From the IMG/VR virus record IMGVR_UViG_2778261247_000008: a stretch of 21,832 nucleotides of DNA; one strand, written 5' to 3'. Positions 6,358-21,832 of the stretch are shown here, in pieces. The DNA comes from a virus (Duplodnaviria > Heunggongvirae > Uroviricota > Caudoviricetes). Numbering within the stretch: the first letter of the stretch is position 1; the number at the start of each line of letters is the position of its first letter. Under the pieces are notes generated by a model. It was not told the DNA's origin. It did not search any database and worked only from the letters and a program-made list of their open reading frames with translations. Both the position numbers and the translations under genes were made by a program.

Positions 6358-6669
6358 ATGTTTAACGTGATAACCCACCCTGCAGCACTGGATGAACTGC
6401 TTGAACTACCAGATGATTTGCGAGGTCGCATGACCAGATTAATTGAGCGACTGGAGAAGGAAGGCAACAAACTGAAGATGCCCCATAGCCGTGTAATAGG
6501 TGGAGGGCTTTTTGAACTACGAGTAGGGGATAAAAACATCGCAAGAACGCTGTACGCCTACGCGACTGGTAACGAAATTTATCTATTGCATGCATTTGTA
6601 AAAAAGACACAGAAAACACCGGTGAAGGCTATCGAAATCGCCAGAACTCGCCTGAAGGAGATGAACTGA
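6358..6669 (+). CDS. higB: type II toxin, RelE/HigB superfamily (Gp49-like)
   Basis: 103 aa; GGAGG RBS; toxin-first order with a 1-nt overlap (TGATG) to a downstream XRE-HTH gene. Sequence MFNVITHPAALDELLELPDDLRGRMTRLIERLEKEGNKL... fits the Gp49/HigB-like family as recalled. Confidence 0.7.
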   Translation: MFNVITHPAALDELLELPDDLRGRMTRLIERLEKEGNKLKMPHSRVIGGGLFELRVGDKNIARTLYAYATGNEIYLLHAFVKKTQKTPVKAIEIARTRLKEMN

Positions 6670-6956
6670 TGAAAGCGAAAGGCATCCCGTTTAACGAAGT
6701 AAAAGAAAAACTTCTCAACACTCCAGAAGCCATCAAAGGATATGAAGAGGCCGATAAAGAGCTGGAGATGGTCGAAATGTTATACGAAATGAGGGAAAGA
6801 GCAGGTTTAACGAAATCAGCTCTGGCTGAACGAATGGGGTTGCGACCGTCAGCCATCAGCCGCCTGGAAAGCAATCCTTTAGGGGCAAGTATGAAAACTT
6901 TGGCTAAATATGCTCATGCCTGCGGCGCAACCATCGATATTCGCGCTGTTTATTAA
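6669..6956 (+). CDS. higA: type II antitoxin, XRE-family HTH (HigA-like)
   Basis: 95 aa with HTH (GLTKSALAERMGLRPSAISRLE); translationally coupled to the upstream toxin. Confidence 0.7.
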   Translation: MKAKGIPFNEVKEKLLNTPEAIKGYEEADKELEMVEMLYEMRERAGLTKSALAERMGLRPSAISRLESNPLGASMKTLAKYAHACGATIDIRAVY

Positions 6957-12167: not shown

Positions 12168-15100
12168 ATGACATTAAACGATTTCTATGCGGATCGCTTT
12201 GGCAGCGATCCGTTCTCGCTAATTGAAGCAGCACGGGATGAACTAACCGAGCTGGCACAGATGGCTGGTATCAACTGGTCTGCCTGTTCCGACAACATCC
12301 AACTCAACCCTCGCGGGGGTGTTGAGCGTTACTCTTCATACAATAAAACATCTCCAGAAGCTCTCGAAAAGAGCCTCAAAGGACGCGTAGAAATTTACTC
12401 CCGGCTGGAACACAGCAAAGGGATTGATTACCCGTTCATTAACTTCGTCCATAAAGGCAGCGATGCTGGCTCATGGAGCGGTTTCTCCTTCCTGTTTTCT
12501 GAATATCGCCGTGAGCAACAACGGAATAATGCGACCGTGGTCGCACAACCGGAAGAAGAACGGGCAAGAATAGAACGTCAGGCCGAAGCACGTCGTCGCC
12601 GTGAAGAACAAAAACGAATTAATGACCTGAAAAACAACCAAATGGACCATGAACGTTTGCTGGGATGGCTGGCATTCCACAGCGCGTGGGAACATGCTCC
12701 TGCAGAAGACGGCTCATGGCCATATGCGATTAAAAAAGGTATTCGTGACGTTTTTAATTCGTGTGATGTGCGTCGCGTGACCAGTCACGACAGCGCAAAA
12801 TGGAGCAGGGGGCCAACCACGTATATGGCTATCCCTCTGGCTCACCTGGACGGTCGTTACGATGGTCGTATTGTGGGTTGGCAGCGAATCGACAAACAAG
12901 GTGGAAAATACCAGACCAGCGCCGTAACCAGCGGCGATTTCGTCGGTGCCTGCTTTGTTATCGGTGAGCTAAAAGGGGCGCAAAACATCGCTGTTACAGA
13001 AGGTTTTGCTACTGGTGCATCCATCTGGCTTGCCACGAAAAAAGATAAACGCTTTGACGCTGTGGTTGTCGCTGTATCCGCTAATAACATGGTTCATGTT
13101 GTGGAACAACTGGTAAACATGTACCCGGCGGCAAAAATCACCTGCGCACTGGATAATGACCGGAAATCAGCCACAGAAGGAAAAGGGAATACCGGCCTGC
13201 GGACTGGCTATGAAATCTTATCGAAATTCAACGATGTCCGCTGCGTCTATCCAACTTTTGAAGACGATCCGCAAATGGAGTGCAGTGACTTCAACGACCT
13301 GCACAAACTGCGTGGACTTCGTGAAACAGCACGTCAACTGTTTGCAACTGCAAACCGCCTGAAAACCGGCACTGATTTGCTATCTCTGACGCTCAACCGC
13401 CTGAAGACAATTAAGCGGGATAACCGTCGTACTTTTGCCAAAGAGCTGCTGAGAGCGGTGGATATTGGCATGCTAACCTGTCCGGTTCCTAACAGTCCGT
13501 CAGACTTATTTAACATGTTCTGCATCGTTCTGCGTGAAATGGGGCTGGAAAATATCTATCGCGCTACGGTAAAAGACCACATTGCCCGTCGCCTGAATAA
13601 AAAGTGCCGTATTGCCCAGGCTCCGCGCTCATTCAGCGAACGCATAACTGATCCCAATAAACGTCCTCAACATATCACCTATAAGCGTTTTGAAACTTCG
13701 GTAATGACCGATGACGTCCTGAAGTATGTGCAATCACTACAGGGGATAGTCATCGTTCGTGCTGGTATGGGTTCCGGCAAATCTACTGGATTGTTACGAC
13801 CTTTAATGCATAGCTCAGAACGTGGTATCTCTGTTGCTCACCGTGTTTCCCTTATTGGTGGCCTGTGGGAAATGATGACAGAAGGAAAAGGTGTAAAAGC
13901 CGATATCCTGCACTATCAGGACCCTGGCTATCAGGAAATGGCTCCATACGCCAGTAAACTGACCATCTGCATAAACTCGATTGTTAAAAACTGCTGGCAA
14001 CCGTTGATGCGCCAGCACGACTATTTTGGCTTTGACGAGGCCACGCAAGGGCTACGTGCCGTTCTTTCCGGTCGGGCTATGGAAAACCCGGTGGCTGTAT
14101 TCAATACGTTAATCGACGCGCTGGCCAGAACGGAACAACACCCAATAATGGTGGATGCTGATGCGAACGATCTGCTGGTTGACCTGGCTGAACTGGCTAT
14201 GAAACGCCGTGAAGAACTAGGTTTACCGGCATGGCTGCAGATCCACGTAATTGAATTACCTGTTGATGTTCGCAACCGCGAAACAGGTGAGCCAATCCGG
14301 GTTTTTTATACAGAAAAAGATCGCATTATGACCGAGGTGGTGAAAGCTGTATCGGATGGCGAAAAAATCATGTTGGCCACCGACAGCTCCACCTTTGCAG
14401 AAGATGTGACAGCCACCCTGAGAATGCATTTTCCTGGTAAGAAATTTCTGTGTGTAAACCAGAAAAACAAACCAGAGCCAGAAGTTGAAGCATTTACCAA
14501 TCAACCGAAAAAGATGGTCAAAAAATACGACGGCCTGATTTATAGCCCGTCTATTTCATCCGGTGTGTCGATTGAGCAAAAACATTTTGACCGTCATTTC
14601 GGCATGTTCTGTGGTGAAGTTGTACCCAGCGACGCAGTGCAAATGCTACGCCGCGACCGTACAGCAAAAGAATTTATTATCGGCTTTGATAAAGCTCGCG
14701 CAAAACGTGAAACTGACCCGCAAAAAATAGAACGAGCATTCGCCCAGGCATTGCTTGCTACCGCAGGCATGAACGGTGAACTGACGGATGTCGTTTTCGA
14801 TGGCGACCGTATATCAATGGGGGTGGCCAATACCGACTTTACCAGGATGAAAATTAAAGCAGCCGCAATTGAAGCGTCTGCGCGTAACGACTACGCCAGC
14901 AACATGATCTGCATCATGCACAGCGACGGTTATAAGGTATCGCCGCTGGCCACCGATTATGCTGCGAATGATATCGGTAAAGATCTGCGTAAAGAAGCGC
15001 GGGATATTGTGTGGGAACAGACACTGGATCTGCATCTCAATACAGAAACTCCACAAGAATCAGAGCGTGAAGAACTGCTAAAAAAACGCGCGCTGACGCT

Positions 15101-16163
15101 TGAAGAACAAGCAAAACTTGTCCGCTGGGATATTGAGAACGAACTGAAACTACCGGTTGAAGAAGGCACGCTGAAATTCTATTTCGATGGTGCTCGAGAC
15201 AAAGTTCGCCGCTATGAAACAATGCTTTTAGATGAGGTAACAGCTCGTCGTTACGACCGGGAAGAAGCAGCCATCAATTTTACCTACGCATACCGTCAGG
15301 CGGGACAGTGGCAATATTTTGTAGTGACCGCGATGACTCGCGAGCAGGCTGATGATGTCTTTAAAACTAAATTCCCTGGAATAATCGACTACAAGGTAAA
15401 AGCTACTCCTACTGTTGAAGTCGGGGCGCGCGGTTTCTATGCGCTTAAATCAGCAACTCTCCGGCAGTACTTTATCGACTGCGGTATCAACCCTGAGACT
15501 ATGACCGGCGAGGCGACTCAGGAGCGTCTCAAATTCGCTCGAGATAACCTCATGACAGCCGAACGCCGTGACCTGTTGAATAACGTTCTGCACATTGGTG
15601 GTTTTATGACGCCAAAAGGGAAGCCTAAAGTGCCGGAAGCGTTGTTTAAAAACATTTGCGACTCTCTTGGCCTTAAAACAGGTAAACGTCGCGGCAGAGA
15701 CGGCGATAAGCGTCCAACCTTGCGTTTTGTTGAGCCTGAATCAGCGGCATTTATGCTGGATATTCTTGTTCAGCGTCAGAAAGATGGCCTAACCCTAAAA
15801 ACGCGTAAAGCCGAGAAGACAGCCATCGAAATGGATCGCGATTTGGATCTCAATATATATATGGATGATAAAACGCGATCCACAAACGAGCAGGTTCAAA
15901 ACGCCCCTCATTCAGTAATTTCTGAGGCTTTGGCCGTATTGCCGGTGGCTGTTCCTGAGTCCTGGGCGATGAGTGCGCTTTCCGGTGAGGAGCTGGCCAC
16001 TATGTCATCATGGTCATCAGCCAGCATAGCTATGACGTTTGCATCTCTGTATCTCACAGAGTTCATGGATCACTTGTCCAGCAATGAATTGCGGCGGTTA
16101 CGAGAATACATTACCGGGAATAGCTCATGCAGCTACGAAGAGCAGGGCGCTTTCTATGGGTAA
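12168..16163 (+). CDS. repA: replication protein RepA, multidomain primase-helicase (N15 RepA-like)
   Basis: Single 1331-aa ORF with Walker A VRAGMGSGKSTGLL in the central region; size and position next to cB match N15 RepA (about 1324 aa, as recalled). Confidence 0.85.
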   Translation: MTLNDFYADRFGSDPFSLIEAARDELTELAQMAGINWSACSDNIQLNPRGGVERYSSYNKTSPEALEKSLKGRVEIYSRLEHSKGIDYPFINFVHKGSDAGSWSGFSFLFSEYRREQQRNNATVVAQPEEERARIERQAEARRRREEQKRINDLKNNQMDHERLLGWLAFHSAWEHAPAEDGSWPYAIKKGIRDVFNSCDVRRVTSHDSAKWSRGPTTYMAIPLAHLDGRYDGRIVGWQRIDKQGGKYQTSAVTSGDFVGACFVIGELKGAQNIAVTEGFATGASIWLATKKDKRFDAVVVAVSANNMVHVVEQLVNMYPAAKITCALDNDRKSATEGKGNTGLRTGYEILSKFNDVRCVYPTFEDDPQMECSDFNDLHKLRGLRETARQLFATANRLKTGTDLLSLTLNRLKTIKRDNRRTFAKELLRAVDIGMLTCPVPNSPSDLFNMFCIVLREMGLENIYRATVKDHIARRLNKKCRIAQAPRSFSERITDPNKRPQHITYKRFETSVMTDDVLKYVQSLQGIVIVRAGMGSGKSTGLLRPLMHSSERGISVAHRVSLIGGLWEMMTEGKGVKADILHYQDPGYQEMAPYASKLTICINSIVKNCWQPLMRQHDYFGFDEATQGLRAVLSGRAMENPVAVFNTLIDALARTEQHPIMVDADANDLLVDLAELAMKRREELGLPAWLQIHVIELPVDVRNRETGEPIRVFYTEKDRIMTEVVKAVSDGEKIMLATDSSTFAEDVTATLRMHFPGKKFLCVNQKNKPEPEVEAFTNQPKKMVKKYDGLIYSPSISSGVSIEQKHFDRHFGMFCGEVVPSDAVQMLRRDRTAKEFIIGFDKARAKRETDPQKIERAFAQALLATAGMNGELTDVVFDGDRISMGVANTDFTRMKIKAAAIEASARNDYASNMICIMHSDGYKVSPLATDYAANDIGKDLRKEARDIVWEQTLDLHLNTETPQESEREELLKKRALTLEEQAKLVRWDIENELKLPVEEGTLKFYFDGARDKVRRYETMLLDEVTARRYDREEAAINFTYAYRQAGQWQYFVVTAMTREQADDVFKTKFPGIIDYKVKATPTVEVGARGFYALKSATLRQYFIDCGINPETMTGEATQERLKFARDNLMTAERRDLLNNVLHIGGFMTPKGKPKVPEALFKNICDSLGLKTGKRRGRDGDKRPTLRFVEPESAAFMLDILVQRQKDGLTLKTRKAEKTAIEMDRDLDLNIYMDDKTRSTNEQVQNAPHSVISEALAVLPVAVPESWAMSALSGEELATMSSWSSASIAMTFASLYLTEFMDHLSSNELRRLREYITGNSSCSYEEQGAFYG
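12530..12545. other. sopC-like palindrome inside repA, opposite orientation (spacer GT)
   Basis: TGCGACC-GT-GGTCGCA, 7-bp arms; on the coding strand all five sites read GCGACCGUGGUCGC in the mRNA sense. Confidence 0.45.
15833..15881. other. candidate replication origin element inside the 3' part of repA
   Basis: GGATCGCG ... CGCGATCC inverted repeat flanking an AT-rich core (ATTTGGATCTCAATATATATATGGATGATAAAA) with GATC sites; N15 ori is reported inside the 3' region of repA (recalled). Confidence 0.3.
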
Positions 16164-17076: not shown

Positions 17077-17165
17077 ATAGTGATGACTGTTCAAGTTAAA
17101 CCGTTCTCGGCATATTTTATTTAATGGAATAATACATTATTAATCAAAGAGGTTAAGTTAATATT

Positions 17166-17978
17166 ATGCGTAACAAAAAAACAACAGCTTTATTACTCTC
17201 TCTCTTGTTATTATCTGGATGCACTTATCAATATGATAATAAGGCATCAACGGACGTTGAGTATAAATTCGAAAAAGAAAAAAGAGTACCTATCAACTCT
17301 GTTGGTGATTTTAGCAGCAAAATACTCACAGGTAAGGAATTTAATAGAATTATTGCATCAAAGATAGATGATGGTTCATGGCGTGGATATATCGTTCACT
17401 CATTAACATACGCGCCATACAACAACGTTTTAACATCTCAAGGTTTGTCTATCCCTAGAAGTATCACATACTCAGGAACATATCTTAACCGTGATTTTGT
17501 TGAGAATAGCGGTAGTGATAGCGTGATAACTTCTCGAGATATGTCTGGATGGTATGGTTTTCATGTTGGTTCTTCTGAAATAACAACGCATGGAAACTAT
17601 GTTGGCGTGAATGCTTTGGGAATATCTGCTGATGTAGAAGTGTTAAACACTTTAGGTGCTGAAATTATCTTTGGCAGCACACAAATAAATAAAGAAAATC
17701 CTGAAACAATATGGGCAGATATTGATATAAAAGGACAAATCCCAAAAGATGTTAATGTAAAAGACCTTAGAATTGAATATTTAGCAAAGATAAATGGGTT
17801 AAGCAGTAATCATATTGATGTAACATCACCTACTATTTTTAACCCGTCAGATATGAGCCATAAAACTCAGGTTTTTATGGGTGAGTTATTAGCAGCACGC
17901 CTGATAAATTTTAAAACGGGAGAAATTTACCCAGTACAGTTAGAGTGGGTGTTCCGTTCGCGTGAGGCTTTCTTATAA
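17166..17978 (+). CDS. lipoprotein (270 aa), AT-rich moron-like gene
   Basis: AAGAGG RBS; signal peptide with lipobox MRNKKTTALLLSLLLLSGC; visibly more AT-rich than its flanks. Confidence 0.65.
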   Translation: MRNKKTTALLLSLLLLSGCTYQYDNKASTDVEYKFEKEKRVPINSVGDFSSKILTGKEFNRIIASKIDDGSWRGYIVHSLTYAPYNNVLTSQGLSIPRSITYSGTYLNRDFVENSGSDSVITSRDMSGWYGFHVGSSEITTHGNYVGVNALGISADVEVLNTLGAEIIFGSTQINKENPETIWADIDIKGQIPKDVNVKDLRIEYLAKINGLSSNHIDVTSPTIFNPSDMSHKTQVFMGELLAARLINFKTGEIYPVQLEWVFRSREAFL

Positions 17979-18039
17979 CGGAACAATAACATTGTTCATG
18001 TTGTGATCAGTTGTTCAAGCAAACTATAAAAACACCTGT

Positions 18040-18073
18040 CCCCGTGACTGGTCACGGGGTAAAATGCTTTTTC
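18040..18073 (+). terminator. GC-rich palindrome followed by a T-run; terminator or protein-binding site downstream of the lipoprotein gene
   Basis: CCCCGTGAC-TG-GTCACGGGG then TAAAATGCTTTTT. Confidence 0.4.
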
Positions 18074-18079
18074 AAATTA

Positions 18080-18109
18080 TTGACGTGTGCGTCGTTTTGA
18101 CGGTAAAGT
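18080..18109 (+). promoter_or_regulatory. candidate promoter of the ant-operon leader
   Basis: TTGACG, 18-nt spacer, TAAAGT. Confidence 0.3.
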
Positions 18110-18116
18110 TACTCCG

Positions 18117-18190
18117 CTGCGGCAAATTCCGCAGCCGGGCGTGAGAACCCGGATAAACGAAGCGCACAACACGCGCCAGCGTGTTTTTTT
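18117..18190 (+). ncRNA. candidate c4-like small regulatory RNA / attenuator transcript in the ant-operon leader
   Basis: Two stem-loops (CTGCGG-CAAATT-CCGCAG; CCGGG-CGTGAGAA-CCCGG) followed by an intrinsic terminator (AACACGC-GCCA-GCGTGTT plus T-run). Loop GUGAGAA is complementary to UUCUCAC at 18275..18281 in the downstream leader. Confidence 0.35.
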
Positions 18191-18356
18191 GTGTGTATAT
18201 ACCTGCGCATATCCGATTTATGGTGGCTCAGGCGGGGCTGACTTCGGTCAGGCCGGTTTCTTCGTTTGCCGGTATTCTCACCCCCGCTTGGGCTACCACC
18301 ATTCAAGAGCGTGAGAACTCTGGTGGTAGCACGACCAATTAAACGGAGTGCATACC

Positions 18357-18521
18357 ATGTTCAAATTCAAATTTGCGGCAGTCGTTCGCACAGACAAAAA
18401 GTCACACATCCATCATCTTTCCACCATCGCGTCATCTGAACGGGAAGCTCGTCGCCAGTTCGCCAGCCGGTTTGTCCTGGTATTGTCTGCCCGTATTCCG
18501 GTGCGCGAGGTGGCTGCATGA
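18357..18521 (+). CDS. small protein (54 aa), first gene of the ant operon; possibly Icd-like
   Basis: MFKFKFAAVVRTDKKSHIHHLSTIASSEREARRQFASRFVLVLSARIPVREVAA; GGAG RBS; ATGA overlap with the next ORF. Not in the ORF track (under 60 aa). Confidence 0.4.
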   Translation: MFKFKFAAVVRTDKKSHIHHLSTIASSEREARRQFASRFVLVLSARIPVREVAA

Positions 18522-18748
18522 ATCAGGTAAAAATGAACACTGTTGGCCTGCTGGAATCGTTGGATGAACGTCTGGATCAGGTCTATGCGCTCGTATCATC
18601 AGCCCATCGGACAGTCTCCAGCTGTGAGGCGTCGATTTATCTCTCAGAAGCAGGGAAACTCCTTCAAATTGCGTGTGAGTTAACACACGAAGCACAGGGG
18701 TATTCAGCATCGCTCTCGTCGCAATTGCTAGGCAAGGAGGCTGAATGA
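18518..18748 (+). CDS. hypothetical protein (76 aa), translationally coupled between the small ORF and ant
   Basis: ATGA overlaps at both ends. Confidence 0.45.
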   Translation: MNQVKMNTVGLLESLDERLDQVYALVSSAHRTVSSCEASIYLSEAGKLLQIACELTHEAQGYSASLSSQLLGKEAE

Positions 18749-19530
18749 GCGCGTTAGCAGTTTTTTCCTTTCAGGATGAGCATCAGATACGTGTAGTGAT
18801 GATTAACGGCGAACCGTGGTTTATTGCTGCTGATATTTGCCGTGCTTTAGGTATAGGGAATCCGACAAAAGCTATAAAAAACTTAGATCATGATGAAGTA
18901 GCCCTTACTTCAATTCAGGGCTTAAGTCGAGGTAATGATAAAGCGAATATTGTCAATGAATCAGGTCTATACACCCTGATCCTCCGCTGCCGTGACGCTG
19001 TAAAACAGGGCACGACCGCGTGGCGTTTTCGTAAATGGGTAACGAACGAGGTCTTGCCCTCTATTCGCAAGAATGGAGAGTACGTTTACGTCGAGCCTGA
19101 GCCAATGCGAGCAGCGGAGCCGTTGAACTGGAGGCAGAAGGAGTATCTGCGAGGGCTGATTAACGATATTGCACAAAGTTTTCAATACCGAAATGCCTGG
19201 ATTAGTGGTGTATGGTTGGCTTTGCGTCGGGCGTGTCGTAATCCATCCCCGAACCCCATAACGGTTGATGATTTGCCAGCAATTACGGCAGAACTGCGCC
19301 GGATTTTGACGGCTGCTGAGTCGGCATTGGGGAACATGCGTACGTATGAACGAGAGTTGTTGCGTGATGTCGTTCGTGGGGGTAGGCGGAGTATGTCGTG
19401 TGGTGATTTGCCCATCACCGATATTAACTCTGATCTGGAAAAGGCGTTACCCGCGCATTTTGAACTGGCAGTTCAAAAACTTGAGCAGTTATCCGCGCAG
19501 TTAAAGCCAGCAGAAATCACTAATAAATAG
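18745..19530 (+). CDS. ant: antirepressor with N-terminal BRO-N/Ant domain
   Basis: N-terminal pattern FSFQDEHQIRVVMINGEPWFIAADICRALGIGNPTKAIKNLDHDE is typical of the Bro-N antirepressor domain. Confidence 0.7.
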   Translation: MSALAVFSFQDEHQIRVVMINGEPWFIAADICRALGIGNPTKAIKNLDHDEVALTSIQGLSRGNDKANIVNESGLYTLILRCRDAVKQGTTAWRFRKWVTNEVLPSIRKNGEYVYVEPEPMRAAEPLNWRQKEYLRGLINDIAQSFQYRNAWISGVWLALRRACRNPSPNPITVDDLPAITAELRRILTAAESALGNMRTYERELLRDVVRGGRRSMSCGDLPITDINSDLEKALPAHFELAVQKLEQLSAQLKPAEITNK

Positions 19531-19666
19531 GGTTGACCAGCCCGAATTTATGCCCTTCTTAGAGAAGGGAAGCCTCGCAGTCGGGGCGGTGATGTCTGTG
19601 GTTGCAGCCGCGTTTCCTCCGTTACTTCTGCCCTTTGCAGGGGGCAGGCGAGGTAGGTCACACAAC

Positions 19667-19690
19667 AAGGCACCGTTAATTCGGTGCCTT
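19667..19690. terminator. hairpin between convergent ant and telN (bidirectional terminator candidate)
   Basis: AAGGCACCG-TTAATT-CGGTGCCTT, 9-bp stem, followed on the plus strand by TACTGTATGCTTT. Confidence 0.5.
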
Positions 19691-19701
19691 TACTGTATGC
19701 T

Positions 19702-21603
19702 TTAACCGAAATATGTCAGCCATGCTAACTGCATTGCTGACATGGGGCTGTTTGCACTGCCGGACCACGCATAATTCTGGCCATTATAATGAAACTCAAC
19801 AACGTATGAGCCATCACCAATATTTCTCACCGGCTTAAATACCGGCTTAGATACAGGCGAAGAAGGTGCAGGCGGTTGCTGTTCTTCTACGCTCTCTTCC
19901 TCTTCCTCTTCCTCTTCCTCTATCTCAATTTCGTCGTCATCCAGATCGTCATCCTCTGATAATTCATCCGCCAGTTCAGGTATTGCTTCCTGTTCTTCTT
20001 CGTCAGGCATAACGATTTCTGGAGTATCTATTTTCAGTTGCCATTGTCCGTTTTCGCCAACAAATTGCCCCAGAGCATCAGCAGCAAATTCCAGGTATCG
20101 ACTAATCATTGTTGGGCTAAATTTGAACGCTCTTAGAGTGCTGTTCGTGATTTTTATAGAGGGGTCCTGCTCTACCAGCTGCTTAACTGTGTTATGCAGA
20201 CGAACCCCGGCATCTCCTCTGGCGAATCCAGGCATTTCGTCATCAAGCTGCTGCAATGCTTCCAGCCTGGTATTTTCGTTTCCAGTATTTGGCCTCCATG
20301 TCTTTGAGAAGTTGGCCAGCTTGAATTGCTTATAGTGTAATTGAGTGTTTTCATCGTCATGGCCTAAAATTTCCATAAAGAAAACATCTTCATCTACATT
20401 TTTCCAACGGGGATCTACGCGGAAAAACATTTCATACGCAATGCGGGCATAAATAGCACGACTATCTTTATAAACACGGCGGTCATCTTTGAAAAATGAT
20501 TTAACCCAGGGGTTAAAAGCCTTTGCTAATATGGCATTAATACGTCCGTTTTCAGACCGTGTATCGTTATCTCCATAACCTTTAACGACATCATCAAAAT
20601 CAGATGCTGCTGGGCATGAGCGAAGTACATTTATTAAATAAACAAATGTTTTTGCCTCACATAATGTATATATTTTTCTGGTTATATCATCAGCAGTTCT
20701 TTTTTTAGCTTGACCTAAAAAATCAACGGTATACTTACCAGAAACAGTAAATGTACCTTGATACATAATCTCAATCATTCGTCTTCCTGACAATGCAGCA
20801 AGTGCAAATGCCAAAGGAGCCATACCTGAACGAGTGTTTAGATTATTTAATGTAGCAGGGCTATTTATAATATCGTAAATAGCTTGCATATATTTAGGGT
20901 AGTCAATGACCACTACGTTACGTTTCTTATTGTGTAGAACGTCCGCCCATCGTTGCTGGATAGATGCGCGTTCTGCAGGGCTTAGTTGGAGATGATAGAG
21001 AATCTCATGGTTAACCTTTAGCTGATTCAACTCCTCAAGCAAGGCAGACCCCTGCTGTAGTAATTTATATAAATAATCGCGCTTATCTTTCCAGTTATCA
21101 CTAATTAAATCAGAAATGGCAAATTGCCACTCTTTATATTTATTTGATAATTTTATTAACTTATTATTACTTTTATTATCACCAATTCTGATATTAGATA
21201 AATCTTCGGACAGAGGAATAATTAATTTTAACTTTGCCTGTAAAGCTGACATTCTCCGGCGAATATCGGCAGCAGGTAGAGAAAGCCATGACAATAGCTC
21301 CTCATTATATAAAGGATACTTTTCAGATAGGCGATATATATTTTTTTCAAAACTATGATGAAGTTTATCATCAAACCGTTTTCTGGCCCTGCTCATATAG
21401 GCATTGAATGTGTTGGCTGTAATTCTTTTTTCTAATCCTTTCCCCCGAAACTTTCGCTTGTCATTAAATAATGCATTTTTAAATTTTAATGCAACGGCCT
21501 TTATTTTTTTTGTTTTCTCCCCTTGAGGACGATCAGAGTTATCTATTGACTCAACATCGCTAACAAGTGAGTTTATTAATTCACCGATTTTTACTTTGCT
21601 CAT
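19702..21603 (-). CDS. telN: protelomerase (telomere resolvase) TelN
   Basis: 633 aa; N-terminus MSKVKIGELINSLV...NALFNDKRKFRGKGLEKRITANTFNAYMSRARKRFDDKLHHSF and C-terminus ...GDGSYVVEFHYNGQNYAWSG match N15 TelN (about 631 aa) as recalled. AGGAG RBS; telRL-like palindrome about 150 bp upstream. Confidence 0.9.
   Translation of the reverse strand: MSKVKIGELINSLVSDVESIDNSDRPQGEKTKKIKAVALKFKNALFNDKRKFRGKGLEKRITANTFNAYMSRARKRFDDKLHHSFEKNIYRLSEKYPLYNEELLSWLSLPAADIRRRMSALQAKLKLIIPLSEDLSNIRIGDNKSNNKLIKLSNKYKEWQFAISDLISDNWKDKRDYLYKLLQQGSALLEELNQLKVNHEILYHLQLSPAERASIQQRWADVLHNKKRNVVVIDYPKYMQAIYDIINSPATLNNLNTRSGMAPLAFALAALSGRRMIEIMYQGTFTVSGKYTVDFLGQAKKRTADDITRKIYTLCEAKTFVYLINVLRSCPAASDFDDVVKGYGDNDTRSENGRINAILAKAFNPWVKSFFKDDRRVYKDSRAIYARIAYEMFFRVDPRWKNVDEDVFFMEILGHDDENTQLHYKQFKLANFSKTWRPNTGNENTRLEALQQLDDEMPGFARGDAGVRLHNTVKQLVEQDPSIKITNSTLRAFKFSPTMISRYLEFAADALGQFVGENGQWQLKIDTPEIVMPDEEEQEAIPELADELSEDDDLDDDEIEIEEEEEEEEESVEEQQPPAPSSPVSKPVFKPVRNIGDGSYVVEFHYNGQNYAWSGSANSPMSAMQLAWLTYFG
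19893..19920. repeat. hexanucleotide tandem repeat (TCTTCC)x4 inside telN, encoding a poly-Glu run
   Basis: Four perfect TCTTCC units on the plus strand = (GGAAGA)n on the coding strand = EEEEEEEEE in the acidic linker. Confidence 0.85.
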
Positions 21604-21756
21604 CTTTCTTCTCCTGATTATCCGCTCGGATTATCGTAACACAATTTGAGAATAAGATAACCAATAACGAGTTAACTTACCCACAAAACAACAGAACACA
21701 ATACCAGATTGTAAAAAATAACACAATACAGGAACGTGGAAATTTGTTCCTTGACT

Positions 21757-21832
21757 TTGTTCTGATGATCAGCACATAATTACCCATTATACGCGCGTAT
21801 AATGGGTAATTATGTGCTGATCATCAGAACAA
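21757..21832. other. telRL-like telomere resolution site: 76-bp perfect palindrome abutting the window end
   Basis: TTGTTCTGATGATCAGCACATAATTACCCATTATACGC|GCGTATAATGGGTAATTATGTGCTGATCATCAGAACAA; the central CCATTATACGCGCGTATAATGG is identical to the N15 telO core as recalled. Confidence 0.8.

Follow-up and report, generated by a model that had tools for sequence, protein, structure and literature searches.

Background

The phages of the N15 type, their protelomerases TelN and TelK and the telRL site on which these enzymes act are textbook material. TelN makes staggered cuts, and the self-complementary overhangs that result are folded back and sealed, each end becoming a hairpin (PMC10612081); the telomeres are duplicated by replication and then resolved by TelN (PMC2847241), and TelN that is bound to the ends blocks SbcCD (PMC12624138). 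The natural target of the N15 enzyme extends over 310 base pairs (bp) and consists of a 56-bp telRL, that is, a core with the L3/R3 motifs, flanked by the degenerate copies L1/L2 and R1/R2, which may be bound by the CTD1 of TelN, giving rise to a protective assembly (PMC12624138); a central decamer of the site is common to N15 and PY54 (PMC3540006). Here we analyze the right end of a stretch of viral DNA of 21,832 nucleotides (nt) from the Caudoviricetes (IMG/VR record IMGVR_UViG_2778261247_000008; the whole stretch is hereinafter referred to as the window), in which an original prediction, made from the letters alone, recognized a linear, hairpin-ended phage-plasmid with a protelomerase gene and a telRL palindrome. 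The protelomerase, the telO core and a gene set of the N15 type all support this prediction. In addition, the comparisons described below indicate that the DNA of this element very probably ends physically at position 21794, in a telL hairpin, with the last 38 nt of the record (21795-21832) representing the same arm read back.

The palindrome and the telO core

The last 76 bp of the window (21757-21832) form the perfect palindrome that had been predicted: two arms of 38 nt, 100% complementary and with a spacer of 0 nt, meet at a center located between 21794 and 21795, and the second arm finishes on the last base of the window. A perfect palindrome of this length cannot have originated by chance. 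The central 22 bp had been taken for the N15 telO core and, on comparison, are indeed identical to it; they contain TACGCGCGTA, where the staggered TelN cuts fall (the cut site is annotated at 24802/3 in the N15 record), and exactly these 22 bp are annotated as telL and telR in the record of the Escherichia phage PhiR46_1. The components of the site, none of which is assigned to a strand, are as follows.

21784-21805: 22-bp core CCATTATACGCGCGTATAATGG, identical to N15 telO
21757-21794: telL arm, very probably the terminal 38 bp of real duplex up to the hairpin tip; also present in L005, L007 and PhiR46_1, in which this end is labeled 'telL site'
21795-21832: probable fold-back copy of 21757-21794 (the complementary strand re-read), not additional DNA
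21768-21783: outer half-site of the telL arm, ATCAGCACATAATTAC, counterpart of the N15 L3 motif region
21730-21751: inverted repeat AGGAAC-N10-GTTCCT between the direct repeats and the telL arm, a 7-pair stem in the scan

In the outer half-site, the counterpart of a part of the N15 site for which the L3/R3 motifs have been described (PMC12624138), ATTATGTGCTGAT is invariant or nearly so across the alignment of N15, phiKO2 and the present lineage. The GGAACA...GTTCC arms of the inverted repeat at 21730-21751 are kept within the Escherichia coli lineage and less so in N15 and phiKO2.

The end of the sequence

An exact look-up of the TelN protein led to the draft contig NODY01000036.1 of assembly GCA_002517525.1, which is 21,832 bp long and of which the 12,131 returned bases match the window's tel-side end without any difference. 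The window is this entire contig, and the sequence really stops at the tel site rather than going on into sop or tail genes. The original prediction that the window ends inside the telomere stands as far as the stop at the telomere is concerned; 'inside' has to be abandoned, given that the contig overshoots the tip at 21794 by 38 nt. A search with the exact 50-bp tel pattern gave no match in the scans of viral contigs and genome contigs.

The nature of the last 38 nt becomes apparent from relatives in which the site is crossed. The related sequence L005, which has an identical TelN and an identical telN-side arm, continues through the site into sopA, and its arms are perfectly complementary for 20 nt only, with divergence from +21 onward: past the mirror, the other arm of L005 reads CTCTGTTATGTTCTTGAT (...ATGCTCTGTTATGTTCTTGAT); at the same place, the window has TGCTGATCATCAGAACAA (...ATGTGCTGATCATCAGAACAA) and thus mirrors its own telN arm exactly. 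In six more relatives that cross the site, perfect arms of 12-21 nt lead into the common sopA-side sequence ATGTTCTTGAT. When the two ends of PhiR46_1 are joined, perfect arms of 27 nt result, and the native perfect palindrome in the relatives spans 24-54 bp. Because the sopA-side arm of the relatives differs from the mirror at 21815-21832, these bases are not those that an intact telRL would be expected to carry.

The distance by which contigs overshoot the dyad varies among assemblies. Sequences that are 100% identical stop at +27 (L007, AASHXG020000040.1) and at +15 (Logan contig L014), compared with +38 here, and the end points 38, 27 and 15 are the values that (k-1)/2 takes at k = 77, 55 and 31. 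We built a toy de Bruijn graph from the window sequence and supplied it with reads from hairpins only, from an intact telRL, or from a mixture of the two. Hairpin-only reads yielded ends at +38, +27 and +15 at k = 77, 55 and 31, respectively; with an intact telRL, the contig passed straight through at k = 55 and 77; and mixed reads led to a stop at +20 at both of these values. Relatives show kilobase-scale fold-backs around the same dyad at both telomeres: pG749_3, a 62.5-kilobase (kb) 'circular' record, carries two inverted protelomerase genes around it, and L018 an inverted sopA/sopB duplication.

The 76 bp are not a property of the site, the outer part of the palindrome being set by the k-mer of the assembler; a k of 77 for this assembly is inferred from the length of the mirror. 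The original prediction had offered an intact telRL and an assembler reading around a closed hairpin as alternatives, of which the relatives, the 38/27/15 series and the toy graph favor the latter and speak against the former. The signature of closed hairpin ends is present in the sequence: the axis of the mirror coincides with the dyad of telO, and across assemblies the length of the mirror tracks (k-1)/2. The ends are presumably covalently closed.

Alternative explanations of the palindrome

Several points weigh against a physical end at 21794. The fold-back is deduced from contig ends and relatives and was not seen directly in reads, and both the assembler and the k of GCA_002517525.1 are themselves inferred. 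The sopA-side contig of this assembly was not among the 10 places with SopA homologs that were listed, and the telR arm of the strain itself was not recovered. L005, the relative compared above, is only 98% identical to the window overall. The Logan end point of +15 is compatible with k = 31 only where the perfect palindrome common to telL and telR is shorter than 31 bp in the respective samples, a condition that holds for some relatives (arms of 12-13 nt) and not for L005 (20 nt). Furthermore, many short-read contigs of relatives cross telRL; therefore, some samples contain intact junction molecules or the assembler joined the ends.

These observations bring up the possibility that the window derives from an intact telRL of the phage or the circular replicative form, that is, a natural perfect palindrome of at least 76 bp at which the contig stops because a palindrome longer than k-1 is untraversable. 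By the toy-graph reasoning, contigs would likewise stop (k-1)/2 past the center of any natural palindrome that measures k-1 bp or more, and taken alone the 38/27/15 series fits this explanation, as does the lack of the strain's own sopA-side arm among the recovered sequences. A palindrome of this kind would place TGCTGATCATCAGAACAAAGTCAAGG next to the core on the sopA-side contig of the same assembly. Every site-crossing relative, L005 with its identical TelN and telN arm included, has short arms of 12-21 nt (27 in the reconstructed PhiR46_1) and then ATGTTCTTGAT, which is unrelated to the mirror of the telN arm, and the known sites are only 56 bp (N15), 50 bp (phiKO2) and 42 bp (PY54) long, which makes an intact telRL highly improbable. 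Less improbable, although still unlikely, is that the mirror reads stem mainly from replicated, unresolved head-to-head telLL junctions, which are duplex palindromes, rather than from closed hairpin tips. Replication of N15 duplicates the telomeres into palindromic junctions that are cut by TelN, and a shortage of TelN leads to unresolved dimers (PMC2847241). A stable lysogen that carries its own telN would be expected to contain such junctions only briefly and in small numbers relative to hairpins. One Y-adapter ligated to a hairpin fragment suffices to make it an amplifiable template. The sequence that results from a telLL junction is the same as that from a hairpin tip, and both origins imply a hairpin lifestyle. 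Palindromic chimeras do occur in sequencing libraries, and the terminal mirror might in principle be a library or assembly chimera without any hairpin, in which case the element would be a circular plasmid or an integrated prophage. Here the axis of the mirror coincides exactly with the dyad of the 22-bp telO core, that is, with the TelN cut site, beside telN; the same axis recurs in independent NCBI and Logan assemblies and, at either end of relatives, in long-read fold-backs; and, contrary to a continuation of the palindrome into chromosomal sequence, which would have spoken against the original prediction, the contig ends and the 5,426 complete E. coli genomes contain no chromosomal copy. 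We consider this explanation scarcely credible, and a telL hairpin at 21794 remains the preferred reading.

Two relatives require separate mention. The first 60 bases of L023 (CATUDY010000047.1), a sopA-side contig of a relative, begin with 27 nt of the telN-type arm and not with their own mirror; therefore, that sample contained reads that extend across an intact telRL, of the phage or of the replicative form, or its assembler joined the arms. The linear Escherichia fergusonii plasmid NZ_CP055678.1 was considered for the comparison of arms and rejected: it ends 46 nt short of the center, and its sop end is trimmed as well.

The protelomerase gene

19702-21603, minus strand: telN, protelomerase (telomere resolvase) of 633 amino acids (aa), identified by Pfam, PDB 2v6e and alignment with N15 TelN

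The original prediction placed the palindrome about 150 bp upstream of a TelN-like gene for a 633-aa protein, in agreement with the measured distances: the ATG at 21603 is separated by 153 nt from the edge of the palindrome and by 191 nt from the dyad. A Pfam scan detected the TelK_N, TelK_muzzle, ResT-TelK_cat and TelK_stirrup domains, all far above the gathering scores (E-values from 7e-25 to 8e-51). Residues 1-536 align with the crystallized TelK of phiKO2 (PDB 2v6e; E=3e-294), and the full-length protein is 77% identical to N15 TelN; the C-terminal part is acidic, with poly-Glu. Tyr424, within the motif TQLHYKQF, is aligned with the equivalent tyrosine of TelK and with the catalytic Tyr425 of N15 TelN, the residue whose replacement in the Y425F mutant renders the enzyme catalytically dead and abolishes resolution (PMC12624138). 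The active-site blocks SGRRMIEIM, GQAKKR and YKDSRAIYARIAYEMFF are the same or nearly the same in the aligned protelomerases. Neither the catalytic tyrosine nor the recombinase fold, in the form of the ResT-TelK_cat domain, is lacking, and, as judged by these domains and alignments, the 633-aa product is a protelomerase.

A promoter scan of 21604-21832 gave no minus-strand sigma-70-like site for telN; the only site reported was TTGACT-18-CATAAT on the plus strand, within the arm, which is left uninterpreted. Between the repeat at +149 and the telN ribosome-binding site, at 21613-21637, the telN strand reads GATAATCCGAGCGGATAATC, in which two GATAATC copies flank a short palindrome; this region is kept within the E. 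coli lineage and may serve telN as its -10 region or as an operator. Downstream of telN, between this gene and the convergent bro gene (19667-19690), lies a 9-bp stem, AAGGCACCG and CGGTGCCTT, with the 6-nt loop TTAATT, which is likely to be a bidirectional terminator, comparable to the terminator annotated after the phiKO2 protelomerase gene; it lacks a T-run and was for this reason not called by the scan.

Candidate accessory repeats beside telN

21720-21729, plus strand: copy of AACACAATAC starting 67 nt from the center (telN-oriented strand), candidate L2/L1-type accessory site for TelN
21695-21704, plus strand: copy of AACACAATAC starting 92 nt from the center (telN-oriented strand), candidate accessory TelN site
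21638-21645, plus strand: third copy of AACACAAT, starting 149 nt from the center and lying 35-42 nt ahead of the telN ATG; better conserved than the other two

In the entire 21.8-kb window, exact AACACAAT occurs three times only (at 21638, 21695 and 21720), on one strand and within 90 bp. The direct repeats of the original prediction thus exist, with coordinates that were one base off (21695 and 21720 instead of 21694 and 21721) and with a third copy at 21638 to be added. Three copies are not unusual per se, this total being reached in 13 of 100 shuffles; the weight of the repeats rests on their clustering and conservation. We aligned the telN-side flanks of eight sequences, namely this contig, five E. 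coli relatives, N15 and phiKO2. In every aligned sequence, motifs of the type ATTGTGTT (the reverse complement of AACACAAT) are located at +67/68, +92 and +149 from the dyad, a spacing that is retained in N15, phiKO2 and this lineage despite a DNA identity of roughly 75%, and in the copy at +149, ATTGTGTTA is invariant in all eight. On the sop side of the relatives and of N15, copies of the ATTGTGTT-type motif are present in the opposite orientation. The repeat motif resembles the outer arm of the tel site, ATT(A/G)TGTGCTGAT.

Degenerate L3/R3-like copies are thus found in the flanks, as in an extended target of the tos type; the phrase 'telomerase occupancy site' was not found in the literature search, and the description of tos and L1-L3 is taken from PMC12624138. 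The suggestion of the original prediction that the repeats are additional occupancy sites for TelN is reasonable and, for N15, already in the literature; in the present element, they are candidate sites. A joint proposal that goes further, and which we put forward tentatively and with considerable doubt, holds that the three ATTGTGTT/AACACAAT motifs are phased loading sites for a multi-TelN cap that would serve both as a shield against SbcCD and in the autoregulation of telN, and that a perfect palindrome of k-1 bases at a contig end is an assembler-independent signature of hairpin telomeres suitable for mining. Autoregulation is suggested because the copy at +149 abuts a GATAAT hexamer, resembling a -10 element, 35 nt upstream of the ATG. 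Should the proposal be true, hairpin telomeres could be mined across millions of short-read draft assemblies by means of (k-1)-base palindromic ends.

Proposed mechanism

The mechanism established for N15, phiKO2 and PY54 can be extended to this element by homology. After infection, the genome would circularize at cos; TelN would then bind the palindromic tel site and make staggered cuts around the central CGCGCG via a Tyr424 phosphotyrosyl intermediate, and each strand would be resealed onto its complement, yielding the telL and telR hairpins. Replication driven by RepA would duplicate the telomeres, and the resulting telLL and telRR would be resolved by TelN likewise. TelN probably stays on the ends and on the three accessory AACACAAT motifs, its putative additional binding sites, where it would shield the DNA from SbcCD. 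The sequenced molecule would have ended at 21794, the reads around the tip would have given the mirror, and the k-mer assembler would have run (k-1)/2 = 38 nt past the tip.

Gene content and distribution

The window is the telN arm of an N15-type phage-plasmid and encompasses a RepA-type gene, a CI-like repressor with helix-turn-helix (HTH) and S24 domains, a Q antiterminator, a Bro-N antirepressor, a DNA methylase, lysis genes, Nu1 and the start of the terminase gene. The following genes are of particular relevance.

12168-16163: RepA-type gene, 1331 aa; the DNA aligns to N15 gene 37, and in relatives the gene is named 'plasmid replication protein, CyRepA1 family'
17166-17978, plus strand: open reading frame (ORF) of 270 aa within the cassette 17092-18003, no match in Pfam, PHROGs or PADLOC
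18745-19530, plus strand: Bro-N antirepressor-like gene adjoining telN, domain match
6358-6956, plus strand: pair of small ORFs, counterparts of a RelE/ParE toxin and an HTH antitoxin in the annotation of the E. fergusonii relative

The terminase and lysis genes are contiguous in the window, as they are in the prophage map of PhiR46_1. Despite the lambda-like Nu1/terminase (1276-1830), the lambda cosN 12-mer, with up to 2 mismatches allowed, had no match in the whole window, and cos was not located. In relatives with an identical or nearly identical TelN (L005, L016-L021, pEC12401-3), sopAB lies on the other side of the tel site, at which the window ends.

Matches were found in 17 of the 5,426 complete E. 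coli genomes, and all 23 matching places are on plasmid records, none being chromosomal; the matches in PLSDB (33 of 33) are typed as non-mobilizable. The element thus appears to be maintained extrachromosomally. The protelomerase gene is already annotated in RefSeq as 'protelomerase family protein' in many plasmids of E. coli, E. fergusonii, E. albertii and Shigella. The 270-aa ORF is a 'hypothetical protein' in pG749_3 and in the E. fergusonii plasmid, and the cassette that contains it (17092-18003), located between repA and telN, may represent a slot with variable accessory or exclusion content. The ORF pair at 6358-6956 is, going by the annotation of the relative, a plasmid-addiction module on the prophage.

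Implications for sequence records

With the N15-type systems thoroughly described and a nearly identical annotated genome already public, there is nothing biologically new in this element; the practical worth of the analysis lies in annotation. The true end of the replicon should be set at 21794, and the last 38 nt should be counted neither as sequence nor as part of an unusually long telRL.

Among the 'complete' plasmid records of this family, several have a length of 60-90 kb rather than about 46 kb and contain at least two copies of the telN region: NZ_CP014491.1 (L002 10560-11020), NZ_LT906558.1, NZ_CP019258.1, NZ_CP126957.1, CP088738.1, CP088810.1, CP088562.1 and CP088430.1. The oversized records other than pG749_3 were flagged by the presence of at least two matching places in the record. 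pG749_3 was examined: although labeled circular, it is an inverted duplication around the tel dyad with one erroneous base at the tip (CGCACG), features that mark it as a long-read fold-back mis-assembly. Mis-assembly of this kind may also account for several of the other 60-90 kb 'complete, circular' records of the plasmid family, which deserve re-examination.

Comparison with known systems

The closest relative with an annotated genome is the Escherichia phage PhiR46_1 (PV340565.1), which is 99.0% identical to the window over 92% of its length and has the same gene order; its record is in the linear-prophage orientation, with the 22-bp telL beside the protelomerase gene and telR beside ParA/ParB. 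The protelomerase is annotated there merely as 'hypothetical protein', and the literature search found no paper on PhiR46_1. The identity is unevenly distributed: the telN region is only 95.8% identical and 18004-18834 only 91%, whereas the remainder is 99.8-99.9% identical. The telL arm contains TTTCCC/GATTTTCAG in PhiR46_1 and TTACCC/GATCATCAG in the window; in place of 17092-18003, PhiR46_1 has another cassette, which carries a gene for a 'Spackle exclusion protein', and in place of the Bro-N gene region of the window (18835-19640) it has much shorter ORFs. This pattern suggests mosaic exchange near the telomere. The linear E. fergusonii plasmid NZ_CP055678.1 has a matching layout, with 99.7% identity in the telN region.

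The window shares with N15 a TelN that is 77% identical, the identical 22-bp core, a distance of about 190 nt between telN and the center, and the ATTGTGTT-type motifs at +67/68, +92 and +149 with their mirrored copies on the sop side, which match the L1/L2/R1/R2 motifs of PMC12624138; the layout of RepA, CI-like repressor, Cro and Q is also common to both. The differences are a DNA identity of about 76% that is limited to part of the window, an outer arm that reads GGGTAATTATG in the window and GGACTATTGTG in N15, and the head, tail and lysis genes of the window, which are lambda-like and 92-94% identical to those of other E. coli lambdoid phages. With phiKO2, the likeness consists of a nearly full-length alignment to TelK (2V6E), the four TelK Pfam domains, the same 11-nt half-core and the outer arm ATTATGTGCTGAT, together with an annotated 50-bp telRL upstream of the phiKO2 protelomerase gene. 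As a Klebsiella phage, phiKO2 differs in the host genus; the protelomerases cannot be compared in the C-terminal tail, past residue 536, and divergence is seen in the flanking intergenic sequence.

The end of the contig finds its counterpart in the fold-back artefacts of hairpin-ended replicons, such as the long-read 'complete circular' records with inverted duplications at the tel dyad (for example, pG749_3, with L018 showing the like at the sop end), of which the window would be the short-read version. The reflection amounts to 38 nt in the window, whereas long-read assemblers can produce reflections of kilobases; it is limited to 38 nt because a k-mer graph stops on meeting its own reverse complement.

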